A stretch of DNA of 15,236 nucleotides. Origin: a virus. Below the pieces are notes generated by a model that worked only from the letters and a program-made list of their open reading frames with translations, was not told the origin of the DNA and ran no database searches. Positions 270-13,878 of this stretch are shown one piece after another. The stretch is taken from the UHGV virus genome UHGV-1333077; one strand, given 5' to 3'. A program made the position numbers and the translations under genes. Every line of letters begins with the position of its first letter. Within the stretch, counting starts at the first letter, position 1.

Positions 270-310
270 AACGGCGAAGCATCACCAGATTTTTGATGGT
301 TATAAAAAAG

Positions 311-661
311 GTTGGTTTGGGAGAAGCGGCGAAAAGGGATGTGGGCACAGGAGATAATCAGATACCGGATATGGGAGCATTCGCTTCTGGTTCGGGATGG
401 TTCAGGCTACCAGGTGGATATATTGTTCAGTTTGGCACTTTTTCAGGGAACACGACCCGCATTATCAGTGGACAATTTCCTATACCATTCCCTGATCAGC
501 CGCTTGTTTCAGTCGGTGTTATGTCTGATGCCGTTCAGTCAGACCCGTCGAAACCTGCCCCGCCGGTTTTGTCTGTAAATTTTAAACATATCAGTAATTC
601 AGCGTGGCGGNNNNNNNNNNTGATACCTCACAGCAATACAGATTCAGTTATATTTCGATAG
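311..661 (+). CDS. Alternative side-tail-fibre C-terminal cassette (Sv'), no credible start of its own in this orientation; would fuse to the constant stf 5' part after inversion
   Basis: Open frame begins with VGLGEAAKRD..., the same K-x-GLGE junction as the expressed stf at 2108-2091. The track start (TTG at 293) is not credible. Contains a tail-fibre-like WFRLPGGYIVQFG segment. Interrupted by the N gap at 611-620; stop TAG at 659-661. A tfa-like gene follows 10 nt downstream. Confidence 0.6.
   Translation, partial: VGLGEAAKRDVGTGDNQIPDMGAFASGSGWFRLPGGYIVQFGTFSGNTTRIISGQFPIPFPDQPLVSVGVMSDAVQSDPSKPAPPVLSVNFKHISNSAWRXXXXIPHSNTDSVIFR
312..326 (+). repeat. Invertase crossover-site inverted repeat, invertase-proximal copy (ttggtttgggagaag)
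   Basis: Exact reverse complement of 2093-2107. Embedded in the Sv' frame as tt-ggt-ttg-gga-gaa-g (GLGE). Neighbouring bases give a partial hix/gix-like 26-bp site (TTATAAAAAAGG TT GGTTTGGGAGAA). Confidence 0.7.
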
Positions 662-671
662 GACGGTAGAA

Positions 672-1112
672 ATGCAGAAATATATTTTCAGTGCCGATAA
701 AAATGCGCTTTTCCCTGTGGAGCTTAAAATCGCTTATCAGGAATCCGGCGAATGGCCCGATGATGGAATCGAAATTGACGACACTGTTGCCGCCGAATTT
801 ATGAAGGAAGCACCAGAAGGAAAATACAGAGGTGTCATCGACGGAATGCCTGCATGGATTGATATTCCACCGCCAACTCATGAGGAACAAATTGCCGCAG
901 CCGAATTGGAAAAGCAGCAATTGATTAATCAGGTCAACGAATACATAAACAGTAAGCAATGGCCTGGTAAAGCGGCGATTGGTCGCCTGAAAGGTGAGGA
1001 ACTGGCGCAATATAATTTGTGGCTGGATTATCTGGACACACTGGAACTGGTCGATACTTCCGGTGCGCCAGATATTGAATGGCCTACGCCTCCGGCAGTT
1101 CAGGCCAGATGA
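672..1112 (+). CDS. tfa: Tail fibre assembly protein (Tfa-family chaperone), alternative copy paired with Sv'
   Basis: 146 aa. The C-terminus ...NLWLDYLDTLELVDTSGAPDIEWPTPPAVQAR carries the conserved Tfa motif (lambda Tfa ends ...VLLNRVDTSTAPDIEWPAVPVME, recalled). Its 3' end overlaps the 3' end of the minus-strand tfa by 29 bp. Confidence 0.75.
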   Translation: MQKYIFSADKNALFPVELKIAYQESGEWPDDGIEIDDTVAAEFMKEAPEGKYRGVIDGMPAWIDIPPPTHEEQIAAAELEKQQLINQVNEYINSKQWPGKAAIGRLKGEELAQYNLWLDYLDTLELVDTSGAPDIEWPTPPAVQAR

Positions 1113-1686
1113 CATCCGGCGCGGTGCTGGTATCTGTTNNNNNNNNNNCGTCAATGTAATCCAGCACAGCGTTAAGCCGGGTTGTTTCTGCCTGCGTCAG
1201 TTTACGTCCGGCCCGTAATTTCAGCTGAATCAGACTAATGGAAGCCATTGCAGCATCAATCAGTGACTGGCGTTGGATTTCTGCCGCGTCCACTGCGGCG
1301 CTATATTGTGCCTCAGTATCCGTCACCCATTTCTCACCATCCCATTTATCATATGGTGTTAACGGGGTGATAGTGGTTATATTTTCAGGGTAATCACCCA
1401 GAGCTGTGATTTCTTTCGATTCTCCTGTTTCGGTGCTATAGACGATTTCACCGCGATGGTCTGACACATATTCCCATGAGTTAAAATCCACAGAACGGCA
1501 GATTGCATAACCATCTTTATGTGTAACTGGTGCATCTAAACAAGAACATGCCGGGATACCGACGCCAACCGCAAGATACTCAGTTGATGTGGAAATATAT
1601 TCCCGCGTTTCTCCGTTGTAGTTATAAACGGTAATGAAGCCGGGTTCCGTGGCAATAAATTCACTGTTTAATTTTACCTGTGTCAT
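1084..1686 (-). CDS. tfa: Tail fibre assembly protein (Tfa-family chaperone), copy coupled to the expressed stf
   Basis: 200 aa. C-terminus ...LNAVLDYID[gap]TDTSTAPDVIWPELPEA matches the Tfa motif. Its ATG (1686-1684) overlaps the stf stop TAA (1688-1686) in a TAATG arrangement, indicating translational coupling. Contains the N gap at 1139-1148. Confidence 0.85.
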   Translation of the reverse strand: MTQVKLNSEFIATEPGFITVYNYNGETREYISTSTEYLAVGVGIPACSCLDAPVTHKDGYAICRSVDFNSWEYVSDHRGEIVYSTETGESKEITALGDYPENITTITPLTPYDKWDGEKWVTDTEAQYSAAVDAAEIQRQSLIDAAMASISLIQLKLRAGRKLTQAETTRLNAVLDYIDXXXXTDTSTAPDVIWPELPEA

Positions 1687-2586
1687 TATGCAGCCCTCAC
1701 GATGTAGTTAAATGCAATGTTTCGCGGTCGAACTTTGTGATAAGTTACGCCTTCCGAGGTTTTCGTGGCTTGAACTGTGTGGACTCCATAGGTGGGGTGC
1801 GCTTTCCCTACCTCAGAATCGTCAATACCAATTCCACTGAAGCCGCCCAGCTGAGCGGAAAATCCTGTTGCTTCCTGTGAAGAAAGTAATGCCCTGCCAC
1901 TGTCAACCCCGCGCCCGTCATCCCAGCCACGAATAAACTCACCGCGTAAATCAGGTAAGTTATTTGTTGGATAAGCCTTTGCCAGTTCCGGGTATTCTTC
2001 TGCAGAAAAAGGCGCACCATTGCATTTCAGCCAGCCTGTTGGCGGAGTGGCTGAAGGCCATGGAACAGGCACCCCAACAGGTAATGCTGAGCCTTCTCCC
2101 AAACCAAGTTTTGTGAGAGCGTCTGCGGCATTCGTTGCGCCGGTTCCGCCGTCAGCGATTGCAAGCGCACCATTGCTCCCTTTCTGCGCAAGTTTACCGA
2201 TGCCTGGGATGGTTACGGCGGTGCCGTTGATGGTAACGGTGATGCTCTGGTTTGCTGAGGTGGTGGCGAACGTCTCCCACGCGCCAATATTCTCGTCGTA
2301 CTCTTTGATGAGCTGTGACATAGCCTGTGCCAGGCCGTCGACCGAGATATTGTCTGATACCAGAATGCCGTACTTCTGGCCGCTCAGCGCCGGGGAAGCA
2401 GCTGGAGTAACCGTCATTGACGTGGCGCTGTTTACGGATGAAATCTGGAACAACTGCACCGGGTTAGACATCACGATAATCGTCTGGCCAGCGCGGACCT
2501 GTCTGGCGGGAGCTGTCCAGTTTGTGCCGGAGCCNNNNNNNNNNGGTATTTCCGTTAATAGAGATAGTTCCGGTGCTATAAATCAT
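1686..2586 (-). CDS. stf: Short side tail fibre protein (lambda Stf-like C-terminal receptor-binding/collar region); constant 5' part 2586-2108, invertible 3' part 2107-1686
   Basis: ATG at 2586-2584 with SD AGGAG (complement of 2592-2596). N-terminus MIYSTGTISINGNT, then N gap 2535-2544, then GSGTNWTAPARQVRAGQTIIVMSNP... The gap changes the apparent frame, so the track starts the ORF at 2474. C-terminal ...LGLGEGSALPVGVPVPWPS...LPDLRGEFIRGW...NIAFNYIVRAA parallels lambda Stf ...YLGAGENSAFPAGAPIPWPS...NIAFNYIVRLA (recalled). Confidence 0.8.
2093..2107 (-). repeat. Invertase crossover-site inverted repeat, stf-internal copy (minus-sense ttggtttgggagaag)
   Basis: Plus strand reads cttctcccaaaccaa. 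Lies in the stf frame as (c)tt-ggt-ttg-gga-gaa-g = LGLGE. With neighbouring bases it forms a hix/gix-like imperfect palindrome CTCTCACAAAAC TT GGTTTGGGAGAA. Confidence 0.7.
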
Positions 2587-3026
2587 AACAACTCCTAAAT
2601 TTAGACAACATGAAGCCCGGAGAGGTATATAACCCTCACCAGAAATAATTTCTGAATTGGTTTTTAATACATGTTGGGCAACGCCAGTGTTGGCATAGCT
2701 ATAGTTGTATCAAATGCCATTGACCACCCACCCAAATAATAATTGCCGACTACTTTATTCCTTTCTGCTCTGACATTCCCACCTGTCATTACAATNNNNN
2801 NNNNNNNATATTTCCGTAACCACCAACGTGTCGACAGTTAGCCCCGGTATAAACAATCTGGCAAAATTCATCACCAATATTCAGGTTCGCATTGGCGATA
2901 TTTATTGTCCCATCAAAAATGAATGGCTTCGTGCAAGTAAGAAGACGTTTGCGTTGACGATTGGTTTATTCAATCCATCAACTAAAATACCATGTAAACG
3001 AATTGCCATAACATTTCCCACTTTAT

Positions 3027-3054
3027 TTTACTTACTCAACACAACAAGTATATT
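3027..3054 (+). promoter_or_regulatory. Candidate sigma70-type promoter for the lipoprotein gene (TTTACT-N16-TATATT) in an AT-rich spacer
   Basis: Hexamers read by eye at 3027-3032 and 3049-3054, about 37 nt upstream of the ATG at 3091. Weak -35 match; not validated. Confidence 0.2.
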
Positions 3055-3090
3055 AAAATTGAACCTTGTCAACAACACAAAGGAGTCCCA

Positions 3091-3324
3091 ATGAAACTCG
3101 CTCTAATTATGCTGCCATTATGTCTGTCCCTCACTGCATGTGGTAATGGTTTAAATACCGGTAAACCAAATTCCGGTGTCATTCCAAAACCTTTGGATCG
3201 AGATGGTAACGGTTCTTTAATTTATGATACCGAAAACCTTCCAATGACGGGGCAGTGGTGTCACGAGATTGATCACGAATACCGACGAATCGGTAGCCCT
3301 TCTAACTGTGTTATAGACTACTAA
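3091..3324 (+). CDS. Small predicted lipoprotein (77 aa), accessory 'moron' gene of unknown function, convergent with J
   Basis: MKLALIMLPLCLSLTAC: signal peptide with lipobox L-T-A-C. SD AGGAG at 3081-3085 with 5-nt spacer. Preceded by a markedly AT-rich region and followed at once by a hairpin terminator. Confidence 0.6.
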   Translation: MKLALIMLPLCLSLTACGNGLNTGKPNSGVIPKPLDRDGNGSLIYDTENLPMTGQWCHEIDHEYRRIGSPSNCVIDY

Positions 3325-3355
3325 ATATTAACCCCTCAAAAGAGGGGTTAATATT
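3325..3355. terminator. Bidirectional stem-loop terminator between the lipoprotein gene (+) and J (-)
   Basis: aatattaacccctc-aaaa-gaggggttaatatt: 14-bp perfect inverted repeat with a 4-nt loop and U-rich 3' arm in both orientations. Sits exactly between the lipoprotein stop (3322-3324) and the J stop (3356-3358). Confidence 0.55.
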
Positions 3356-6300
3356 TTAACCTGTGAATGAACCAGATCCGTGTGATACTATGACAGTAGG
3401 CGAATAAATGGACGCGCCCCTGTTATTTTGAGCGGACACTTTAATACGTACTGTTACGTTTGGACCTGTTATAACAGCAGAATGCATAATAAGTCTCTCC
3501 ACGTCTTGCACAGATGAACCACTCTCATTGCCGTTAATATTGATTAGTCCTGCACCATTACCTTTAACGTTTGCTATAACACAGACGTGTCTTGCGTGCC
3601 CAGAACTGGATGAATCCGTATAAGTTATTACCTTTTCTAAAAGGCCGTCACTAGACCGACTAACGTCAGTTCCGGTGTGCATATTTGCAATGTCCCCGAT
3701 AAAACTTTGGGCTTCCACAGTCCCTTTGAATTTACCGCTTGTTGCTTGTATCTCACCAGTAAATCTACCGCCACTAGCATATACTACACCTCTGACGGTC
3801 ACATTGTTGAATTCAGCATCTCCAGCTTTATTCAACTTCCAACCAGCAGAACCAGCTGCATAGTTGTTGGACTGGATATAGTTACCGATTTTTGCGTTCT
3901 CAATGGTGCCGTCCTGGATGAAGCTGGCCCGGATGAATGTCTGTCCATTCTGGATCACAAACGGCAAAGCCACGCTATTTCCGGCTGCCGTGGTGACGGC
4001 GAAGCGATCAGCCAGGAAGATAACCTGCGACTGCATGCCGGATGGCGTATTCTCCACGCCGATACCCATCCCCGCGGCGTAATACTGCCCGTTGCTGGAG
4101 ACACCAACTTTGATGTTGTACATCGCGCTGAGGTCGCCGTTTACGTTCGCTATAGCCTGAGCGTTGGTTGTGATGGCTGAGGTATGCCCGTTCACCGTCG
4201 CCGTGATGCTGTTTACCTGCGTGGCCATAGCCTGCTGGTAATCGGAGAACGTCTGGTTCAGGCTGTTGATGGATGCCTTGTTNNNNNNNNNNCGTCTGCA
4301 GGCTCAGCAGCGAGCGCGCCGTTGCCTCCCTGTCGTTGACAATCACCTCATCAATACGGTCCAGATTCGCGCTGTTGCCGGCGACCGATGCAGAAAGGGT
4401 TTTACGCGTGGCCACCTGAGCGAGGTTGGCCTGGATTATCGCAATTGCAGAGTTCTTCACCCCGCCCGTCATGCCGTCCATCGACACAGAAATCTCGTCG
4501 ATCTTCACTTCGGCCTGAGCCAGCCCGTCAGCGTTCTCCAGGATGTCTTTCGCCTGCTGCTCGAGTTCGTCGGCATGGTTTTTAATTTCGTCAGCCATGC
4601 CAGCAATTTTTTCGTTGCTGTCCACCGCGTTCTCGATCAGATCTTTGAACGTATCGGAGCCTTTCATGTCCTCCAGGATTGCATCGGTGATATCGGAAAC
4701 ATCGATGCTGGCCTGTCCTCGCACCCATTCTGTGTACCCTGATTCGTTGCCGCTGCGGTCCACCAGCTGAGCGCGGTACCAGAAAATCTGCCCAGCCTTG
4801 AGGCCCATCTGCTGATACTTGCGCTGCGGATAGGGTACGTCTGCCAGCAGCATCGCATCGTCTTCCGTCCCAGTCAGACTGTACTGAATTTCCGTCTTCA
4901 GCGTGTCGTCGGTGTTCGCCGGGAATCCCCAGCTCAGCTCGATACCGAATACCACATTATCGGAAGCGATGAAGCCAACCGGCTTCGGTGGATTGCCCAC
5001 TTTACCCGTCAGCGTTTTCTCTTCTGAATAGCCCCATCCGGATGAAATTTCTGCGGCATTGATTGCGCGCACCCGCACCAGGTAGCGCCCGGCATAAATC
5101 CCCGGGACGTCGAATGACGTGGTGGAGGTGCGCGGCACGTTAACCCAGTTCCCGTCGTTGCGGCGCCATTGCGCTTCATAGGCGATAGCGTTCTGCGCCT
5201 GGTCCCAGCTAACGCGCATCGTTTCGACGCTGATATTTTGCTGCACCACGGAAAACGAGCTGATCACGATGTTCGCAGGCGGCGACTGGTTACCAGGCGG
5301 GATCACGCTCACCGGCCGCTGGTCAATGATGGCTCCGGTATCGATGCGGGCATATTTATCCGGGTCGTGCCATGCGCCGGTGATTGAGAAAGTGCCATCA
5401 CCGTTGTCGGAGACGCTGACAACACGATACTGCTGCGCGTAAAGCTCGTCAGATTCAACCACCCAAACAGCTTCGGCCTGTGGCGTCTCACTGTATGCCG
5501 TGGTGACTGTGACTGATTCCCCGTTCACGGCCTGAATGGTCCTGCTCTGCGACGCTCCGGAGGGAAGGTTGAGAATAAGGCGATCACCTGGTGCTGCATC
5601 AGCTACGCGGTCAAGTTTGATAACGCGACCGTTAACGGCGCTGATGCGGCCGCCCATAACCTTTCCGGAAAGCAGCTCGTCTGCCACGGCGATGATGTAG
5701 CCAGGCTGCGGAATGTTTCCGTCCAGCCCGACATCAAACGAAACAACGCGATCCTTGTTGTTGGTGAGAATGCCCCAGCGCCCCTTTCGGTTCGCTTCTG
5801 ACTGCCTGGTGCAGCCGATGGCTGTCATTTCCAGCTGATTGAAGCCGTATCGCGCTACCAGCGCCTGCTCAAATACCGGCTCCATCGCGTCGGCATAAGC
5901 GTTACCCGGGTCTGACCATGAAACCAGCGCTGTGGTGTAGCGGGTTTTCGTGGTGCTGCTTGAATAGGTGAAGCGACCGCCAACAACGTTGGCGCGCGTG
6001 TAGCTGTAATCAACATCTCGGGGCATATCGGCCAGAGCAACGATCTGATCGCCTCCCCAGTACGTCATGCCACGGAATATGGCCGCAAAATCACGCAGGA
6101 CTGTATAAGCGTCGTTTCGGTCCTGGATGTACACGTTGCAGGTATAACGTGGTTCGGTACCGTTGCCCCCTTTGCCGTCTGGTACCATCTGATCACAATA
6201 CTGGGCAACCTGATAAAGCGTCCATTTATCAATATTCGCAGCGGTCAAACGGTGCCCGAGGCCGAACCGGGCAGAAACAACCAGATCGTAAAAAATCCAC

Positions 6301-7157
6301 GCAGGGTTATCCGTCCATGCCCACTTAAACGCACCGGTCCATGTACCGCTATAAGTGCGGGTTTCAGGGTCGTAGGTATCTGGAACGCGGATAACACGGC
6401 CGCGGGGCTCGCAGGAGATCTGCGGGATAGAGCCGTTAAACTGACTTGAATCGAATTCGATGTAGAGTAGCGCTGTGTTTGGATATCGTAACTTGGCGTC
6501 AATCACCTCGGTGAAGCTCTGCAGCGTCATCGTGTCGCCGATCTTCGCGCTGTTGGCATCAGAGGTAATCTTACGCAGACGTATTGTCCAGGTGCTGCCA
6601 GCTTGCGGTAAATCGATACGGTGGCTGCGCTCATAACCAGACGTCGTTTTGCCGGTCACGCTGGTATTGAGTACCGTCTGNNNNNNNNNNCATGTGCCGC
6701 CGTCCGTCTGCAGGTCAATCGCATAATTGACCGAGTAACCCACCAGATCTCCGTCGTCTTCCTGTTTGAAAAGCGAGGGCCATTTCAGACGCAGACGAAC
6801 TGCTGAAAGCTGCGTATTGGTAAACGTGCGCGTCCAGGCTGTAGCGCTTGATACCTCAGTTCCCACGCTGATTTCGTTTTCGGTACCGGGAATACCCTGA
6901 ATATATTTTTGAGCCTGCGTCCCCGCGCGAAACTCCCACGTCACGCCGCTGAAGTTTTGGGAACCGTCGGCATTCTCCAGCGCCGTTCCGTCCAGGTAGA
7001 TATCTTTGCCGGTTAGCTGCCCTGCGAACTCCCCTTCGCCAAGCGCAACGAGGATTTTTGCCTTCGCTACAGATTGCAGATCATCAGGCTGTTCGGTAGG
7101 AGTTCGTGAACTGGATTTGCCGCCTTTGCGCCCCTTTAATACTTTCTCTGTAGCCAT
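3356..7157 (-). CDS. J: Tail tip / host-specificity protein J (central tail fibre)
   Basis: N-terminal 1049 aa (track ORF 4008..7157) resemble lambda J. The N gap at 4283-4292 shifts the apparent frame; the true C-terminal about 290 aa continue as the track ORF 3356..4228. The gap at 6681-6690 is also inside the gene. Confidence 0.9.
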
Positions 7158-7658: not shown

Positions 7659-8257
7659 TTACTGCTGATCTTCGACATATATCCCGGCAGAAATAATCGC
7701 TCCGCCGATTCGACGCTTACCATAAAGCAGAGGCACTGGGTAGCCTTGCGCTGCAGTGTTGGTTACCCCGCCAAACGCATACGATGNNNNNNNNNNNNNN
7801 NNNNNNNNNNNNNNNNNNNNNNNNNNNNNNNNNNNNNNNNNNNNNATAACATCTGAACTACCCCCCCCAGCGTTATGGACGCACCAGCAGCAAACATCAT
7901 ATTGCTGGCAGCTATACTCAGACCTGGCATCCAGATCGATGCAATCACTAATACTGCGCCCAGGATAGTTTGAATCAAACCGGCTTTTTTACTCCCGATG
8001 ATTACCGGAACAATGCGAATAACCTCGCCGGTAATCGGGAAGCCAAGGTCATCCACACCGATGTTTTTTTTACCCTTAAACACGGAGTATGTGAGCCCAC
8101 GGCGTTGGCTGGAAATCATAAACTGCTCAAATCCAGGAATGGTTTTTGCGAGTGCAACGCCTGCTTCGCTTACGCGGGATATCAGACGGTAGTGAACTTT
8201 GCCAAACGTTTTTCCAAGAACACTGCCTAATTCAATTCGACTCATGACCTCTTGCAT
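7659..8257 (-). CDS. I: Tail assembly protein I
   Basis: N-terminal part resembles lambda I (...IVPVIIGSKKAGLIQTILGAVLVIASIWM...GGVVQML). A 59-N gap (7787-7845) interrupts it. Beyond the gap the lambda-like C-terminus AQGYPVPLLYGKRRIGGAIISAGIYVEDQQ is in another apparent frame and ends at TAA 7659-7661. The track end at 7763 is a gap artefact. Confidence 0.85.
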
Positions 8258-9514: not shown

Positions 9515-10279
9515 TCAACTCCTGATAAGAGATGTACCGGGGAAACCACCGAACGGCAGCTCGTTGCTGTATCCGTGCCGGAGCTTGCAGGCCGTCAGCG
9601 TGCCGTTGCATACATCCAGCGAGGGATCGTCAACCGGATTATTGTTTTTGTCGAAATAGCGCGTTCCGGCATAGTCGCAGCCGTCGCCGGTACGATATTT
9701 ATTCCGGATGCACCAGGTACACAGGGAATGAAGCTGTCGCGTCGGGATCATTTGCCCCTGCAGGTCCATCGGGCTGGATAGTGTGAACTCAACAACTTCA
9801 TTGGTTTCACTGCTCTTTGCATCGATGTAGAAAACCTTCAGCTTCTCCTGGGTCGGATCGGCTGTCGGATTGCCTCCGGTGAAGTTTCTCGCATCAAGAT
9901 ACTTACCAAGGGTGTCATGTATCGTCACCTTCGCCTGCAGCATATCGTCGTAAGCCAGGCAAAGCGCGGTGATCGAACTGTCGAGGTTAGCAACCGAAAG
10001 TTTTGGCTGGGCACTACTTCCCGAGGTTGAAGCTTCNNNNNNNNNNATCCCATCAATCTGGCATGGCCACGCTTTATACTCCTCACCCTGCCACCAGATA
10101 GATTTTGCTGGCAGTTTATTTTCATCACCGCCAGCAGCCTCAATCTCTTCCGGGGTATGCGCGATGTTATGTGCGTGGAAGCGGAGTACATCTGACATAC
10201 CGAACGCTGTGCCATCGACAGAAAAAAGCCGGACTTCATTGCCCGGCTCGAGTTTTTGATAATCAGCATTAAGACTCAT
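9515..10279 (-). CDS. L: Minor tail protein L
   Basis: 254 aa with the Cys-rich C-terminal region typical of gpL. ATGA overlap with the M stop. Contains the N gap at 10037-10046. Confidence 0.9.
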   Translation of the reverse strand: MSLNADYQKLEPGNEVRLFSVDGTAFGMSDVLRFHAHNIAHTPEEIEAAGGDENKLPAKSIWWQGEEYKAWPCQIDGXXXXEASTSGSSAQPKLSVANLDSSITALCLAYDDMLQAKVTIHDTLGKYLDARNFTGGNPTADPTQEKLKVFYIDAKSSETNEVVEFTLSSPMDLQGQMIPTRQLHSLCTWCIRNKYRTGDGCDYAGTRYFDKNNNPVDDPSLDVCNGTLTACKLRHGYSNELPFGGFPGTSLIRS

Positions 10280-13451: not shown

Positions 13452-13878
13452 TCAGCTCACTGGCGAGGACTTTTCCGCAGTAACGGGTTCAGCGGGATCA
13501 TTACGTTCTTCACCGGATGAAGTCGGTTCTTCAATGACAGGCGCAATCATCCCGGACAGGAGTTTCACCTTATATTCCGCTTCGGCAACCAGTTCGGTCG
13601 GCCATGACTGCATGACCTCATCCTGAATCTTTGCCACTTCCGCCGCCGCATTTTCTCCCTGGGAGCCTTTCAGTTCGTGGCCGTGCCAGAGTGACATCGC
13701 CACGAGGAACGCCCCACTTTTTANNNNNNNNNNNNNNNNNNGCCGCCTGAAAATCGCCAGCTTCAACTGCCTCAAGTTGTTTCAGGTATTCGAGGTATTC
13801 AATACGCTGCAGCGCCGACAGCTGGAACAATGTGACGCTGCTGCCGTTACTTTCAAGCAGCTCGCTCTTTAGAAACAT
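13452..13878 (-). CDS. G: Tail assembly chaperone G
   Basis: MFLKSELLESNGSSVTLFQLSALQRIEYLEYL... and ...GAFLVAMSLWHGHE...DPAEPVTAEKSSPVS parallel lambda G (MFLKTESFEHNGVTVTLSELSALQRIEHL...; ...GAFLVAMSLWHNH...AGPAEPVSAGKCSTVS, recalled). The N gap at 13724-13741 splits it into two apparent ORFs in the track. Confidence 0.85.
13470..13476 (-). promoter_or_regulatory. Putative -1 programmed ribosomal frameshift heptamer GGAAAAG near the 3' end of G
   Basis: Minus-sense ...ACT GCG GAA AAG TCC... The -1 frame from here reads GGA AAA GTC ... straight into T. Lambda uses GGGAAAG at the equivalent place (established knowledge); this heptamer differs at position 3. Confidence 0.5.

Follow-up and report, generated by a model that had tools for sequence, protein, structure and literature searches.

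A candidate LamB-directed exclusion lipoprotein beside the receptor-binding end of J in a lambda-like prophage

Small lipoproteins, one of them with a demonstrated exclusion activity, are known from several phages depending on the maltoporin LamB. 'Type-C' lipoproteins were described in mEp010, mEp013, mEp044 and mEp554 (Negrete-Mendez et al., 2025; PMC11893012), four phages that fail to plate on a lamB knockout (PMC11893012). Expressed from a plasmid in Escherichia coli W3110, one of them, Lpp010, excludes mEp010, mEp044, mEp554 and, unexpectedly, lambda, and according to these authors no lipoprotein of a lambdoid phage had previously been reported to exclude lambda; both a receptor block and an interference with DNA ejection were left open as modes of action (PMC11893012). 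LamB is also the terminal receptor of Bas21 GottfriedDienst, Bas22 KurtStettler, Bas23 WildeMaa and Bas24 SeppeHuegi (PMC8594841, S5 Table), with lamB dependence confirmed by complementation for Bas22 KurtStettler (PMC8594841), and the BASEL papers treat such loci of Seuratvirus, Nonagvirus and Dhillonvirus phages as receptor-binding loci with cognate exclusion factors. Here we analyze a stretch of the UHGV virus genome UHGV-1333077, 15,236 nucleotides (nt) at its full length and hereafter called the window, in which a gene for a lipoprotein of 77 amino acids (aa) lies between a J-like central tail fibre gene and a side tail fibre gene. We propose, with a probability of about three in four, that this lipoprotein neutralises LamB as a phage receptor and would thereby protect the prophage-carrying or lysing cell from LamB-dependent phages, its own phage included.

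The window protein and Lpp010 are members of the same family. Identity to mEp044_110 and mEp010_116 reaches 51% over the whole protein and 59% when only the mature part is compared. The mEp010 homologue has the locus tag mEp010_116 and is the 'gp116' that was cloned as Lpp010, while mEp044_110 differs from Lpp010 (mEp010 gene 116) by two residues (98% identity) and carries K2, S11, Q38 and V40, the residues listed in the original study (PMC11893012); the match to the genes of that study is secure. The sole significant match among PHROG families was PHROG 12984 'lipoprotein' (E = 1.3e-56), with residues 1-77 aligned on profile positions 1-77. Homologues were found by tblastn in 44 phage records, and the reciprocal search started from mEp044_110 returned the same 44. 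The match to mEp044 (E = 2e-20, 51% identity) was the weakest one among phages, yet it led to the tested family member.

The receptors of the carriers point in the same direction. The BASEL phages found among the 44 carriers are exactly Bas21-24, virulent Seuratvirus phages whose copies are 83-96% identical to the window protein and occupy the same convergent position after J; none of the LptD-dependent Bas19, Bas20 and Bas25 is present among the 44 carrier records. Since the four mEp phages and the four BASEL phages all depend on LamB, every carrier with an experimentally determined receptor uses LamB (8/8). The first-pass annotation of this locus, made from the letters alone, had suggested an exclusion factor acting on the phage's own receptor and had listed LamB among the candidates. 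The former suggestion is supported by the full-length homology to Lpp010, which excludes LamB phages, and by these eight carriers, and the same evidence singles LamB out of the list. The lipoprotein is a further member of the known pattern of exclusion genes lying next to a receptor-binding gene, in a family with one tested representative.

The open reading frame (ORF) is a real gene under purifying selection and not a chance frame, as indicated by its homologues in the 44 phage records and by ratios of nonsynonymous to synonymous substitution rates (dN/dS) of 0.02-0.10 at a dS of 0.5-1.2. In comparison with GottfriedDienst and KurtStettler, dN/dS is 0.08-0.09 for the whole gene and 0.02-0.04 for the mature part, the protein having hardly changed while the DNA diverged considerably. 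A very recent transfer as the source of the 96% identity to GottfriedDienst was rejected given the dS of 0.48 (1.2 to KurtStettler) and the low dN/dS of the mature part. The search of 5.8 billion proteins yielded 22 clusters at 56-97% identity, and in a 22-sequence alignment the invariant positions are C17, P26-N-S-G-V30, P32, G41, L43 and T47-E48, as well as G54-Q-W-C57, R66, G68, N72-C73 and Y77. One cluster, P0014, is a 74-aa frameshifted form present on 29 contigs, whose C-terminus is out of frame after residue 54.

Beyond this narrow family, similarity searches reached nothing. The HMMER profile search of 1.84 billion representatives recovered only three true clusters, all of the same family, with no bridge to Cor or Llp, and the profile search of all sequences of the PDB found no relative. 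The proteins P0025 and P0026 (~4450 aa, with Thr/Gly/Ala-rich repeats and 39 and 9 short matching stretches, respectively) were discarded as compositional artefacts. The identical protein, WP_021567253.1, is encoded by E. coli Nissle 1917 and by strain SZQ1, and a literature search by the accession WP_021567253 retrieved no paper.

A Bor-type lipoprotein serving lysogenic conversion or virulence, involved in serum resistance or adhesion and without any role in exclusion, is the kind of product that the first-pass annotation had deemed equally probable. The window protein is indeed a small prophage lipoprotein, its gene has a promoter of its own and occupies a known accessory slot (held by lom in lambda), and its signal peptide does align with that of Bor. 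However, hhalign aligned nothing of lambda Bor beyond the signal peptide and a short piece of linker, and scans of the lipoprotein against Pfam (Bor included), NCBIfam and PADLOC gave nothing at E <= 10. Moreover, Seuratvirus, Nonagvirus and Dhillonvirus phages, groups to which the virulent BASEL isolates belong, account for 38 of the 44 carrier records, and the conservation of the gene in strictly virulent phages is hard to reconcile with serum resistance, whereas the homologue Lpp010 has a demonstrated exclusion activity. We thus regard a Bor-type function as very improbable, and not as the equal of an exclusion function.

The gene has the predicted signals of an autonomous unit (Table 1). 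The precursor begins with MKLALIMLPLCLSLTAC... / MKLALIMLPLCLSLTACGNG... and ends with NCVIDY; its signal peptide reads MKLALIMLPLCLS-LTAC-G, with a Gly and no Asp at position +2, and lipidation is predicted from this sequence. The mature part extends over 61 aa, from Cys17 to Tyr77, with the further cysteines C57 and C73. Under the Lol sorting rule, a Gly at +2 predicts transport to the outer membrane. The promoter scan by itself was not above chance (4 sites found for 3.6 expected). Over five diverged phages and prophages, the -10 box and the ribosome-binding site are invariant and the -35 box reads either TTGACT, in GottfriedDienst, KurtStettler and one prophage, or TTTACT. In addition, the 97 nt upstream of the gene (3000-3096; loci L003, L007, L008 and L013) show a mean column identity of 92%, above the 79% nucleotide identity of the coding sequence (window versus KurtStettler), and this conservation beyond that of the coding sequence argues that the predicted promoter is functional. 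Between the start of the divergent fibre gene and the ATG of the lipoprotein gene, the constraint suggests divergent regulatory signals tightly packed within ~80 nt.

The terminator hairpin bridges the convergent stop codons of the lipoprotein gene and of J. Its predicted RNA fold reaches -20.9 kcal/mol on the plus strand (z ~-5.8) and -22.0 kcal/mol on the minus strand (z ~-6.0), none of 200 shuffles being as stable on either strand; the terminator scan also calls it, and mEp044 and mEp010 both carry a terminator annotation at the corresponding place. The initial description of a plus-strand, convergent, 77-aa lipoprotein gene with an LTAC lipobox and two cysteines in the mature part thus stands, as do its own ribosome-binding site (AAGGAG), plausible promoter (conserved -10 and -35 boxes) and bidirectional terminator (15-bp hairpin). 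The term moron, which the same description had used, also suits the gene, with its conserved promoter, its hairpin terminator, a guanine-cytosine (GC) content of 0.39-0.42 against 0.52 for the window, and its presence or absence among relatives, including the CX strains without the gene that are discussed below.

Table 1. Coordinates of the lipoprotein gene, its signals and the neighbouring features in the window.
Feature	Position	Strand	Remarks
Lipoprotein gene	3091-3324	+	77 aa, 16-aa signal peptide; from ORF list and PHROG 12984
Lipobox LTAC	3130-3141 (codons 14-17)	+	Predicted lipidated Cys is Cys17
Ribosome-binding site AAGGAG	3080-3085	+	5 nt before ATG; invariant in five diverged copies
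Sigma-70-like promoter TTTACT-16-TATATT	3027-3054	+	Consensus scan; predicted
Bidirectional terminator hairpin	3323-3356	both	Perfect 15-bp stem, 4-nt loop, A/T-rich arms
J-like central tail fibre gene	3356-7157	-	ORFs 3356-4228 and 4008-7157; interrupted only by N runs 4283-4292 and 6681-6690
J receptor-binding end (last ~150 codons)	3356-3811	-	In same low-GC mosaic module as lipoprotein gene
J stop codon	3356-3358	-	Right limit of the AT-rich block
Decayed DUF6453 gene	2664-3010	-	Frameshifted; occupies much of the AT-rich block
Side-tail-fibre ATG	2584-2586	-	Left limit of the AT-rich block
Side tail fibre gene	1686-2586	-	ORFs 1686-2474 and 2464-2586; broken by N run 2535-2544; Pfam Collar
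Tail-fibre-assembly genes	672-1112; 1084-1686	+; -	Facing each other
Nine masked N runs	611-620, 1139-1148, 2535-2544, 2796-2807, 4283-4292, 6681-6690, 7787-7845, 10037-10046, 13724-13741		

The position after J is a constant of the family. The lipoprotein gene directly follows a J-like gene, in convergent orientation and with a shared terminator, in the window and in all nine other loci examined (one Seuratvirus, one Dhillonvirus, two mEpimmI phages and five lambdoid prophages). In the window, the minus strand carries most genes, which make up a lambda-like tail module and, in E. coli prophages of near-identical sequence, bear the annotations tape measure protein, L, C40 peptidase, tail assembly protein and host specificity protein J; the last of these corresponds to the J of the window, in which the Pfam domain Phage_Tail_Tip is found in the C-terminal 290 aa.

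Between J and the side tail fibre gene lies a block of 769 bases (2587-3355) that had been picked out as AT-rich, and this is correct: its GC content is 0.39, versus 0.535 in the fibre gene, 0.56 in most of J and 0.517 in the whole window. The low GC extends beyond the J stop, with 0.43 over 3356-3900, the last ~180 codons of J. The foreign-looking unit is therefore made of the receptor-binding end of J together with the lipoprotein gene. It was also claimed that the gene order of lambda is broken here, which needs to be reworded, because the slot between J and stf likewise holds an accessory gene, lom, in lambda itself; this is a known variable slot, in which the gene order is varied and not broken.

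Much of the block is occupied by a decayed gene. An N-terminus of the side-tail-fibre type (MAIRLHGILVDG...), ~30 codons long, is out of frame with a DUF6453 C-terminal piece, and the joined sequence matches Pfam DUF6453 at positions 225-289 of 291 only. Three-frame translations showed the identical frameshift in the window, in Nissle 1917 and in SZQ1, and RefSeq flags the gene as partial or short in the prophages of the latter two strains. This remnant is no part of the exclusion function. The left edge of the lipoprotein cassette, which is conserved, coincides with the first ~60 nt of this remnant, which may serve as a recombination anchor. An 88-aa ORF on the plus strand (2828-3094), antisense to the remnant, was rejected as a gene for want of any support. 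The Rfam scan of the whole window matched no RNA family.

The cassette is shared with, and without, the end of J. Window positions 2951-3358 are 88% identical to GottfriedDienst over 409 nt, a stretch that takes in the first ~60 nt of the lateral fibre gene and extends as far as the J stop, and positions 2951-3811 form with KurtStettler a single contiguous block of 868 nt (77% identity) that reaches ~150 codons into J. At the protein level, the last 110 aa of the window J are 84% identical to those of KurtStettler and share 65-69% identity with the J ends of mEp044 and mEp010, and lambda J aligns to the window J up to residue 997 only, its receptor-binding end remaining without alignment. Since the end of the window J is 84% identical to that of the LamB-dependent KurtStettler, we strongly infer that the prophage itself uses LamB.

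Similarity of the lipoprotein and similarity of the J end are uncoupled in both directions. GottfriedDienst and KurtStettler have mature lipoproteins that are 97% identical and J ends that are 19% identical, and mEp044 and the prophage of ARL09/232 have J ends that are 87% identical for lipoproteins at 62%. Such uncoupling, together with the exclusion by Lpp010 of lambda, whose J end does not align, is expected if the target is LamB itself, and the lipoprotein appears from these comparisons to be matched to the receptor and not to the phage. The same lipoprotein family is found with two very different C-terminal types of J, whose identity over the last 110 aa is 19-29%: one in the loci L003 and L004, the other in the window and the loci L013, L005, L014 and L007. 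Their signatures are ...SAQN.RGA.I.SPT.IVS.GSGSF.G for one type and ...VYGS.L.PSVILMTRGTGSWS for the other, both occurring in LamB-dependent phages.

The following sequence of events may be proposed for the lipoprotein. The host RNA polymerase would initiate at the sigma-70 promoter that belongs to the gene and is directed against the late tail operon, so that expression would be independent of late transcription. After export, the precursor would receive its lipid at Cys17 and be processed by signal peptidase II, and the Gly at +2 should lead the Lol system to deliver it to the outer membrane, on the side of the inner leaflet. There, the 61-aa mature part, probably with a disulfide between C57 and C73, would bind the periplasmic side of LamB and alter or lock the channel and the surface loops, in such a way that J-type receptor-binding domains could no longer bind productively or trigger DNA ejection. 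The activity of the window protein, its periplasmic orientation and its direct binding to LamB are inferred by analogy with described exclusion lipoproteins.

Several observations weigh against this proposal. Lpp010, the sole family member with an experimental phenotype, is only 51% identical to the window protein, and it does not exclude mEp013, although this phage is LamB-dependent (PMC11893012). The escape of mEp013 suggests that LamB is altered and not removed, some receptor-binding variants being still able to enter; exclusion through a simple loss of LamB is contradicted by this phage. Nissle 1917 was reported to bind lambda in a LamB-dependent and maltose-enhanced manner and yet not to be infected (PMC5987069), and since this strain adsorbs lambda despite an identical gene, either expression is weak there or the block occurs after adsorption. 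Finally, the AlphaFold2 models obtained with alignments of 21 and 23 sequences are of low confidence (mean predicted local distance difference test, pLDDT, of 57.9 and 63.2) and without a fold match, a Foldseek comparison of the better one with the PDB giving nothing at E <= 0.001; the low pLDDT may mean that the peptide acquires its fold only once bound to its target.

As the Nissle data fit plain masking of the receptor poorly, a block after adsorption is kept as the main rival. The target would be the same, but LamB adsorption would stay intact, and tail-tip triggering, the DNA conduit or DNA transfer would be blocked, the bound phages being wasted. Adsorption through LamB without productive infection in Nissle 1917, which carries the identical gene (PMC5987069), agrees with this scheme; the inefficacy of Lpp010 on the LamB-dependent mEp013 fits a subtle receptor change better than an occlusion, and interference with DNA ejection is left open by the mEpimmI authors (PMC11893012). 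However, the solved complexes of Llp with FhuA and of Rtp45 with LptD abolish the binding of the receptor-binding protein, and the rationale for virulent phages, to keep progeny off debris, needs a block of binding (PMC11990801). Moreover, the lambda resistance of Nissle was attributed to other factors. A block restricted to such a later step is in our opinion unlikely, though it deserves serious consideration, and we retain the neutralisation of LamB as a receptor as the preferred interpretation.

The distribution of the cassette in E. coli bears on what the gene does not do. Of 5426 complete E. coli genomes, 46 contain the lipoprotein cassette, a good part of these being derivatives of Nissle, and the J end is present in 38 genomes, 33 of which retained the lipoprotein. 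In CX04, CX05, CX07, CX15 and CX21, which form one lineage, the lipoprotein gene was cleanly deleted, leaving only the last 63 bp of the cassette and the terminator. This lineage, as seen in CX15 (L015 2843-2997), has a J end at 89% nucleotide identity, has lost both the lipoprotein gene and the DUF6453 remnant, and presents a gap of 153 bp between J and the fibre gene. Since the CX strains keep the J end without the lipoprotein, the gene is dispensable for the virion. A sign of decay is also seen in E. coli O68:H12 strain 97.3 (L008 ~3575-3580), where ATA replaces the ATG start and RefSeq annotates a 165-aa ORF that begins further upstream.

These data leave little room for an accessory of morphogenesis or lysis, such as an o-spanin-like lipoprotein or a tail fibre assembly factor. 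The location among tail genes and a weak PHROG match to a family of Rz-like spanins (residues 2-32 only, E = 0.25) might evoke such a role, but this match is limited to the signal peptide. No lysis cassette is close to the gene, which is read in the direction opposite to the late operon and has a sigma-70 promoter and a terminator of its own. Its absence in CX-lineage prophages that retain the J end and the fibre genes, and its reassortment independently of the J end, make this explanation the least credible of those considered.

The copy of Nissle 1917 is located at 2039370-2039710 of CP007799 (L002 4617-4957) and is identical to the window at 341 of 341 nt. 'Prophage 3' of this strain was credited with immunity (PMC5987069), and we considered whether the copy belongs to this 'prophage 3' of Bury et al.; their coordinates in Table S1, if on CP007799, place it instead in PHAST region 4, and we therefore claim no link to the repressor result that these authors obtained for 'prophage 3'.

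The cassette brings the one exclusion family linked to LamB into a new context, that of a lambda-like prophage and of the probiotic Nissle 1917, where the product so far bore no annotation beyond that of a hypothetical protein. Few phage receptors have been studied as much as LamB, and the same cassette of ~0.4-0.9 kb is common to temperate prophages and virulent Seuratvirus phages. The uncoupling of the lipoprotein from the receptor-binding domain is a clear comparative sign that such factors match the receptor, and helps to predict receptor use and cross-resistance from sequence, and such receptor prediction is relevant for the cocktails of phage therapy and for engineered Nissle strains.

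A bolder conjecture, which we hold as tentative and on balance doubtful, is that the family acts as a receptor-matched and phage-independent 'LamB lock', in which the 61-residue periplasmic lipoprotein would enter or clamp the maltoporin trimer and disable unrelated J-type domains. These would possibly comprise the domain of lambda, that of the window and KurtStettler type and that of the GottfriedDienst and HH3 type. If true, the lock would represent a third structural mechanism of porin inactivation, beside those of Llp on FhuA and of Rtp45 on LptD, and could carry a cost for, or a change in, maltodextrin uptake. In that case the Nissle copy might also contribute to the adsorption of lambda without infection, which would turn the probiotic into a phage sink.

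Other features of the window concern its tail fibres. The side tail fibre gene is annotated as 'phage tail protein' in SZQ1, and its interruption, as that of J, is caused by runs of N that break the reading frames, so that these breaks are not signs of pseudogenes. Window positions 293-1686, which include the fibre assembly genes, look like an invertible host-range segment of the type of the Mu G and P1 C segments. Beside the corresponding fibre assembly genes of related prophages (L001 698-2699 and L002 1860-3250), a recombinase and an alternative fibre tip are encoded.

Compared with known systems, the closest is Lpp010, which aligns over its full length with the window protein and shares with it the motifs PNSGVIP, YDTE.LP.TGQWC and RRIGSPSNCV, the terminal Y and the two mature cysteines. 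Both genes have the same position after J, a convergent orientation and a shared terminator, and the carriers of Lpp010 use LamB. The window protein differs by the lack of a 5-residue insertion after the lipidated Cys and by a Gly instead of an Ala at +2, and the hosts of the two genes also differ, Lpp010 belonging to an mEpimmI phage with a J of ~1700 aa and the window to a lambda-like tail module with a J of ~1265 aa. The 'lipoprotein' of Seuratvirus, Nonagvirus and Dhillonvirus phages (bas21_0021, bas22_0021, CAjan, Seurat, 9g and EP23) falls in the same PHROG 12984; the window protein is 83-96% identical to the Queuovirinae copies and ~72% identical to that of Dhillonvirus, with the same promoter, ribosome-binding site and terminator. 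These carriers are virulent, and the likely benefit for them is a progeny spared from debris and infected cells, whereas the window gene, being in a prophage, would protect the lysogen.

Lambda offers two points of comparison. Lom occupies the same slot between J and stf, but is a 206-aa outer-membrane protein encoded in the same direction as J and is no lipoprotein. Bor is a small prophage lipoprotein, which in the hhalign comparison shares the signal peptide and a short linker only. The lambda record annotates neither as an exclusion factor: Lom is entered there simply as an outer membrane protein, and Bor with the note 'confers serum resistance upon the host'.

A comparison with Cor, Llp and Bor had been put forward in the first-pass annotation as the way to place the protein. 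Performed with hhalign, it aligned signal peptides and revealed no homology, and the comparison of folds is limited by the low confidence of the models. The family profile matched T1 Cor over residues 1-21 (21 columns) and T5 Llp over residues 1-19 (19 columns), in both cases the signal peptide only, and the PDB-wide profile search returned no Llp entry. By these alignments, the likeness to Cor and Llp is functional and positional only, and no membership of the window protein in either family could be detected. T5 Llp is likewise made as a 77-aa precursor, adjoins a receptor-binding gene and has its own promoter; it binds the periplasmic face of FhuA, changes the surface loops allosterically and thus inactivates the receptor of T5 itself. 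Its target FhuA is a TonB-dependent transporter, whereas LamB is a trimeric porin, and llp diverges from oad in T5, whereas the window gene converges on J. Cor of T1, phi80 and N15, which acts on FhuA, is also a small lipoprotein (75 aa in T1) that excludes phages using the same receptor. The layout of T1 cor is the same as in the window, downstream of the J or receptor-binding locus, on the opposite strand and with a shared terminator, but the receptor differs.

Rtp45 of phage RTP is a periplasmic exclusion lipoprotein encoded at the same type of locus, downstream of J in small siphophages, with LptD as the receptor. No PDB chain matched the family profile, the presence of the Rtp45 complex in that copy of the PDB not having been checked. 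Rtp45 sterically displaces an extracellular loop of the LptD beta-barrel, and by analogy it would provide the most plausible model for the action of the window lipoprotein on LamB.

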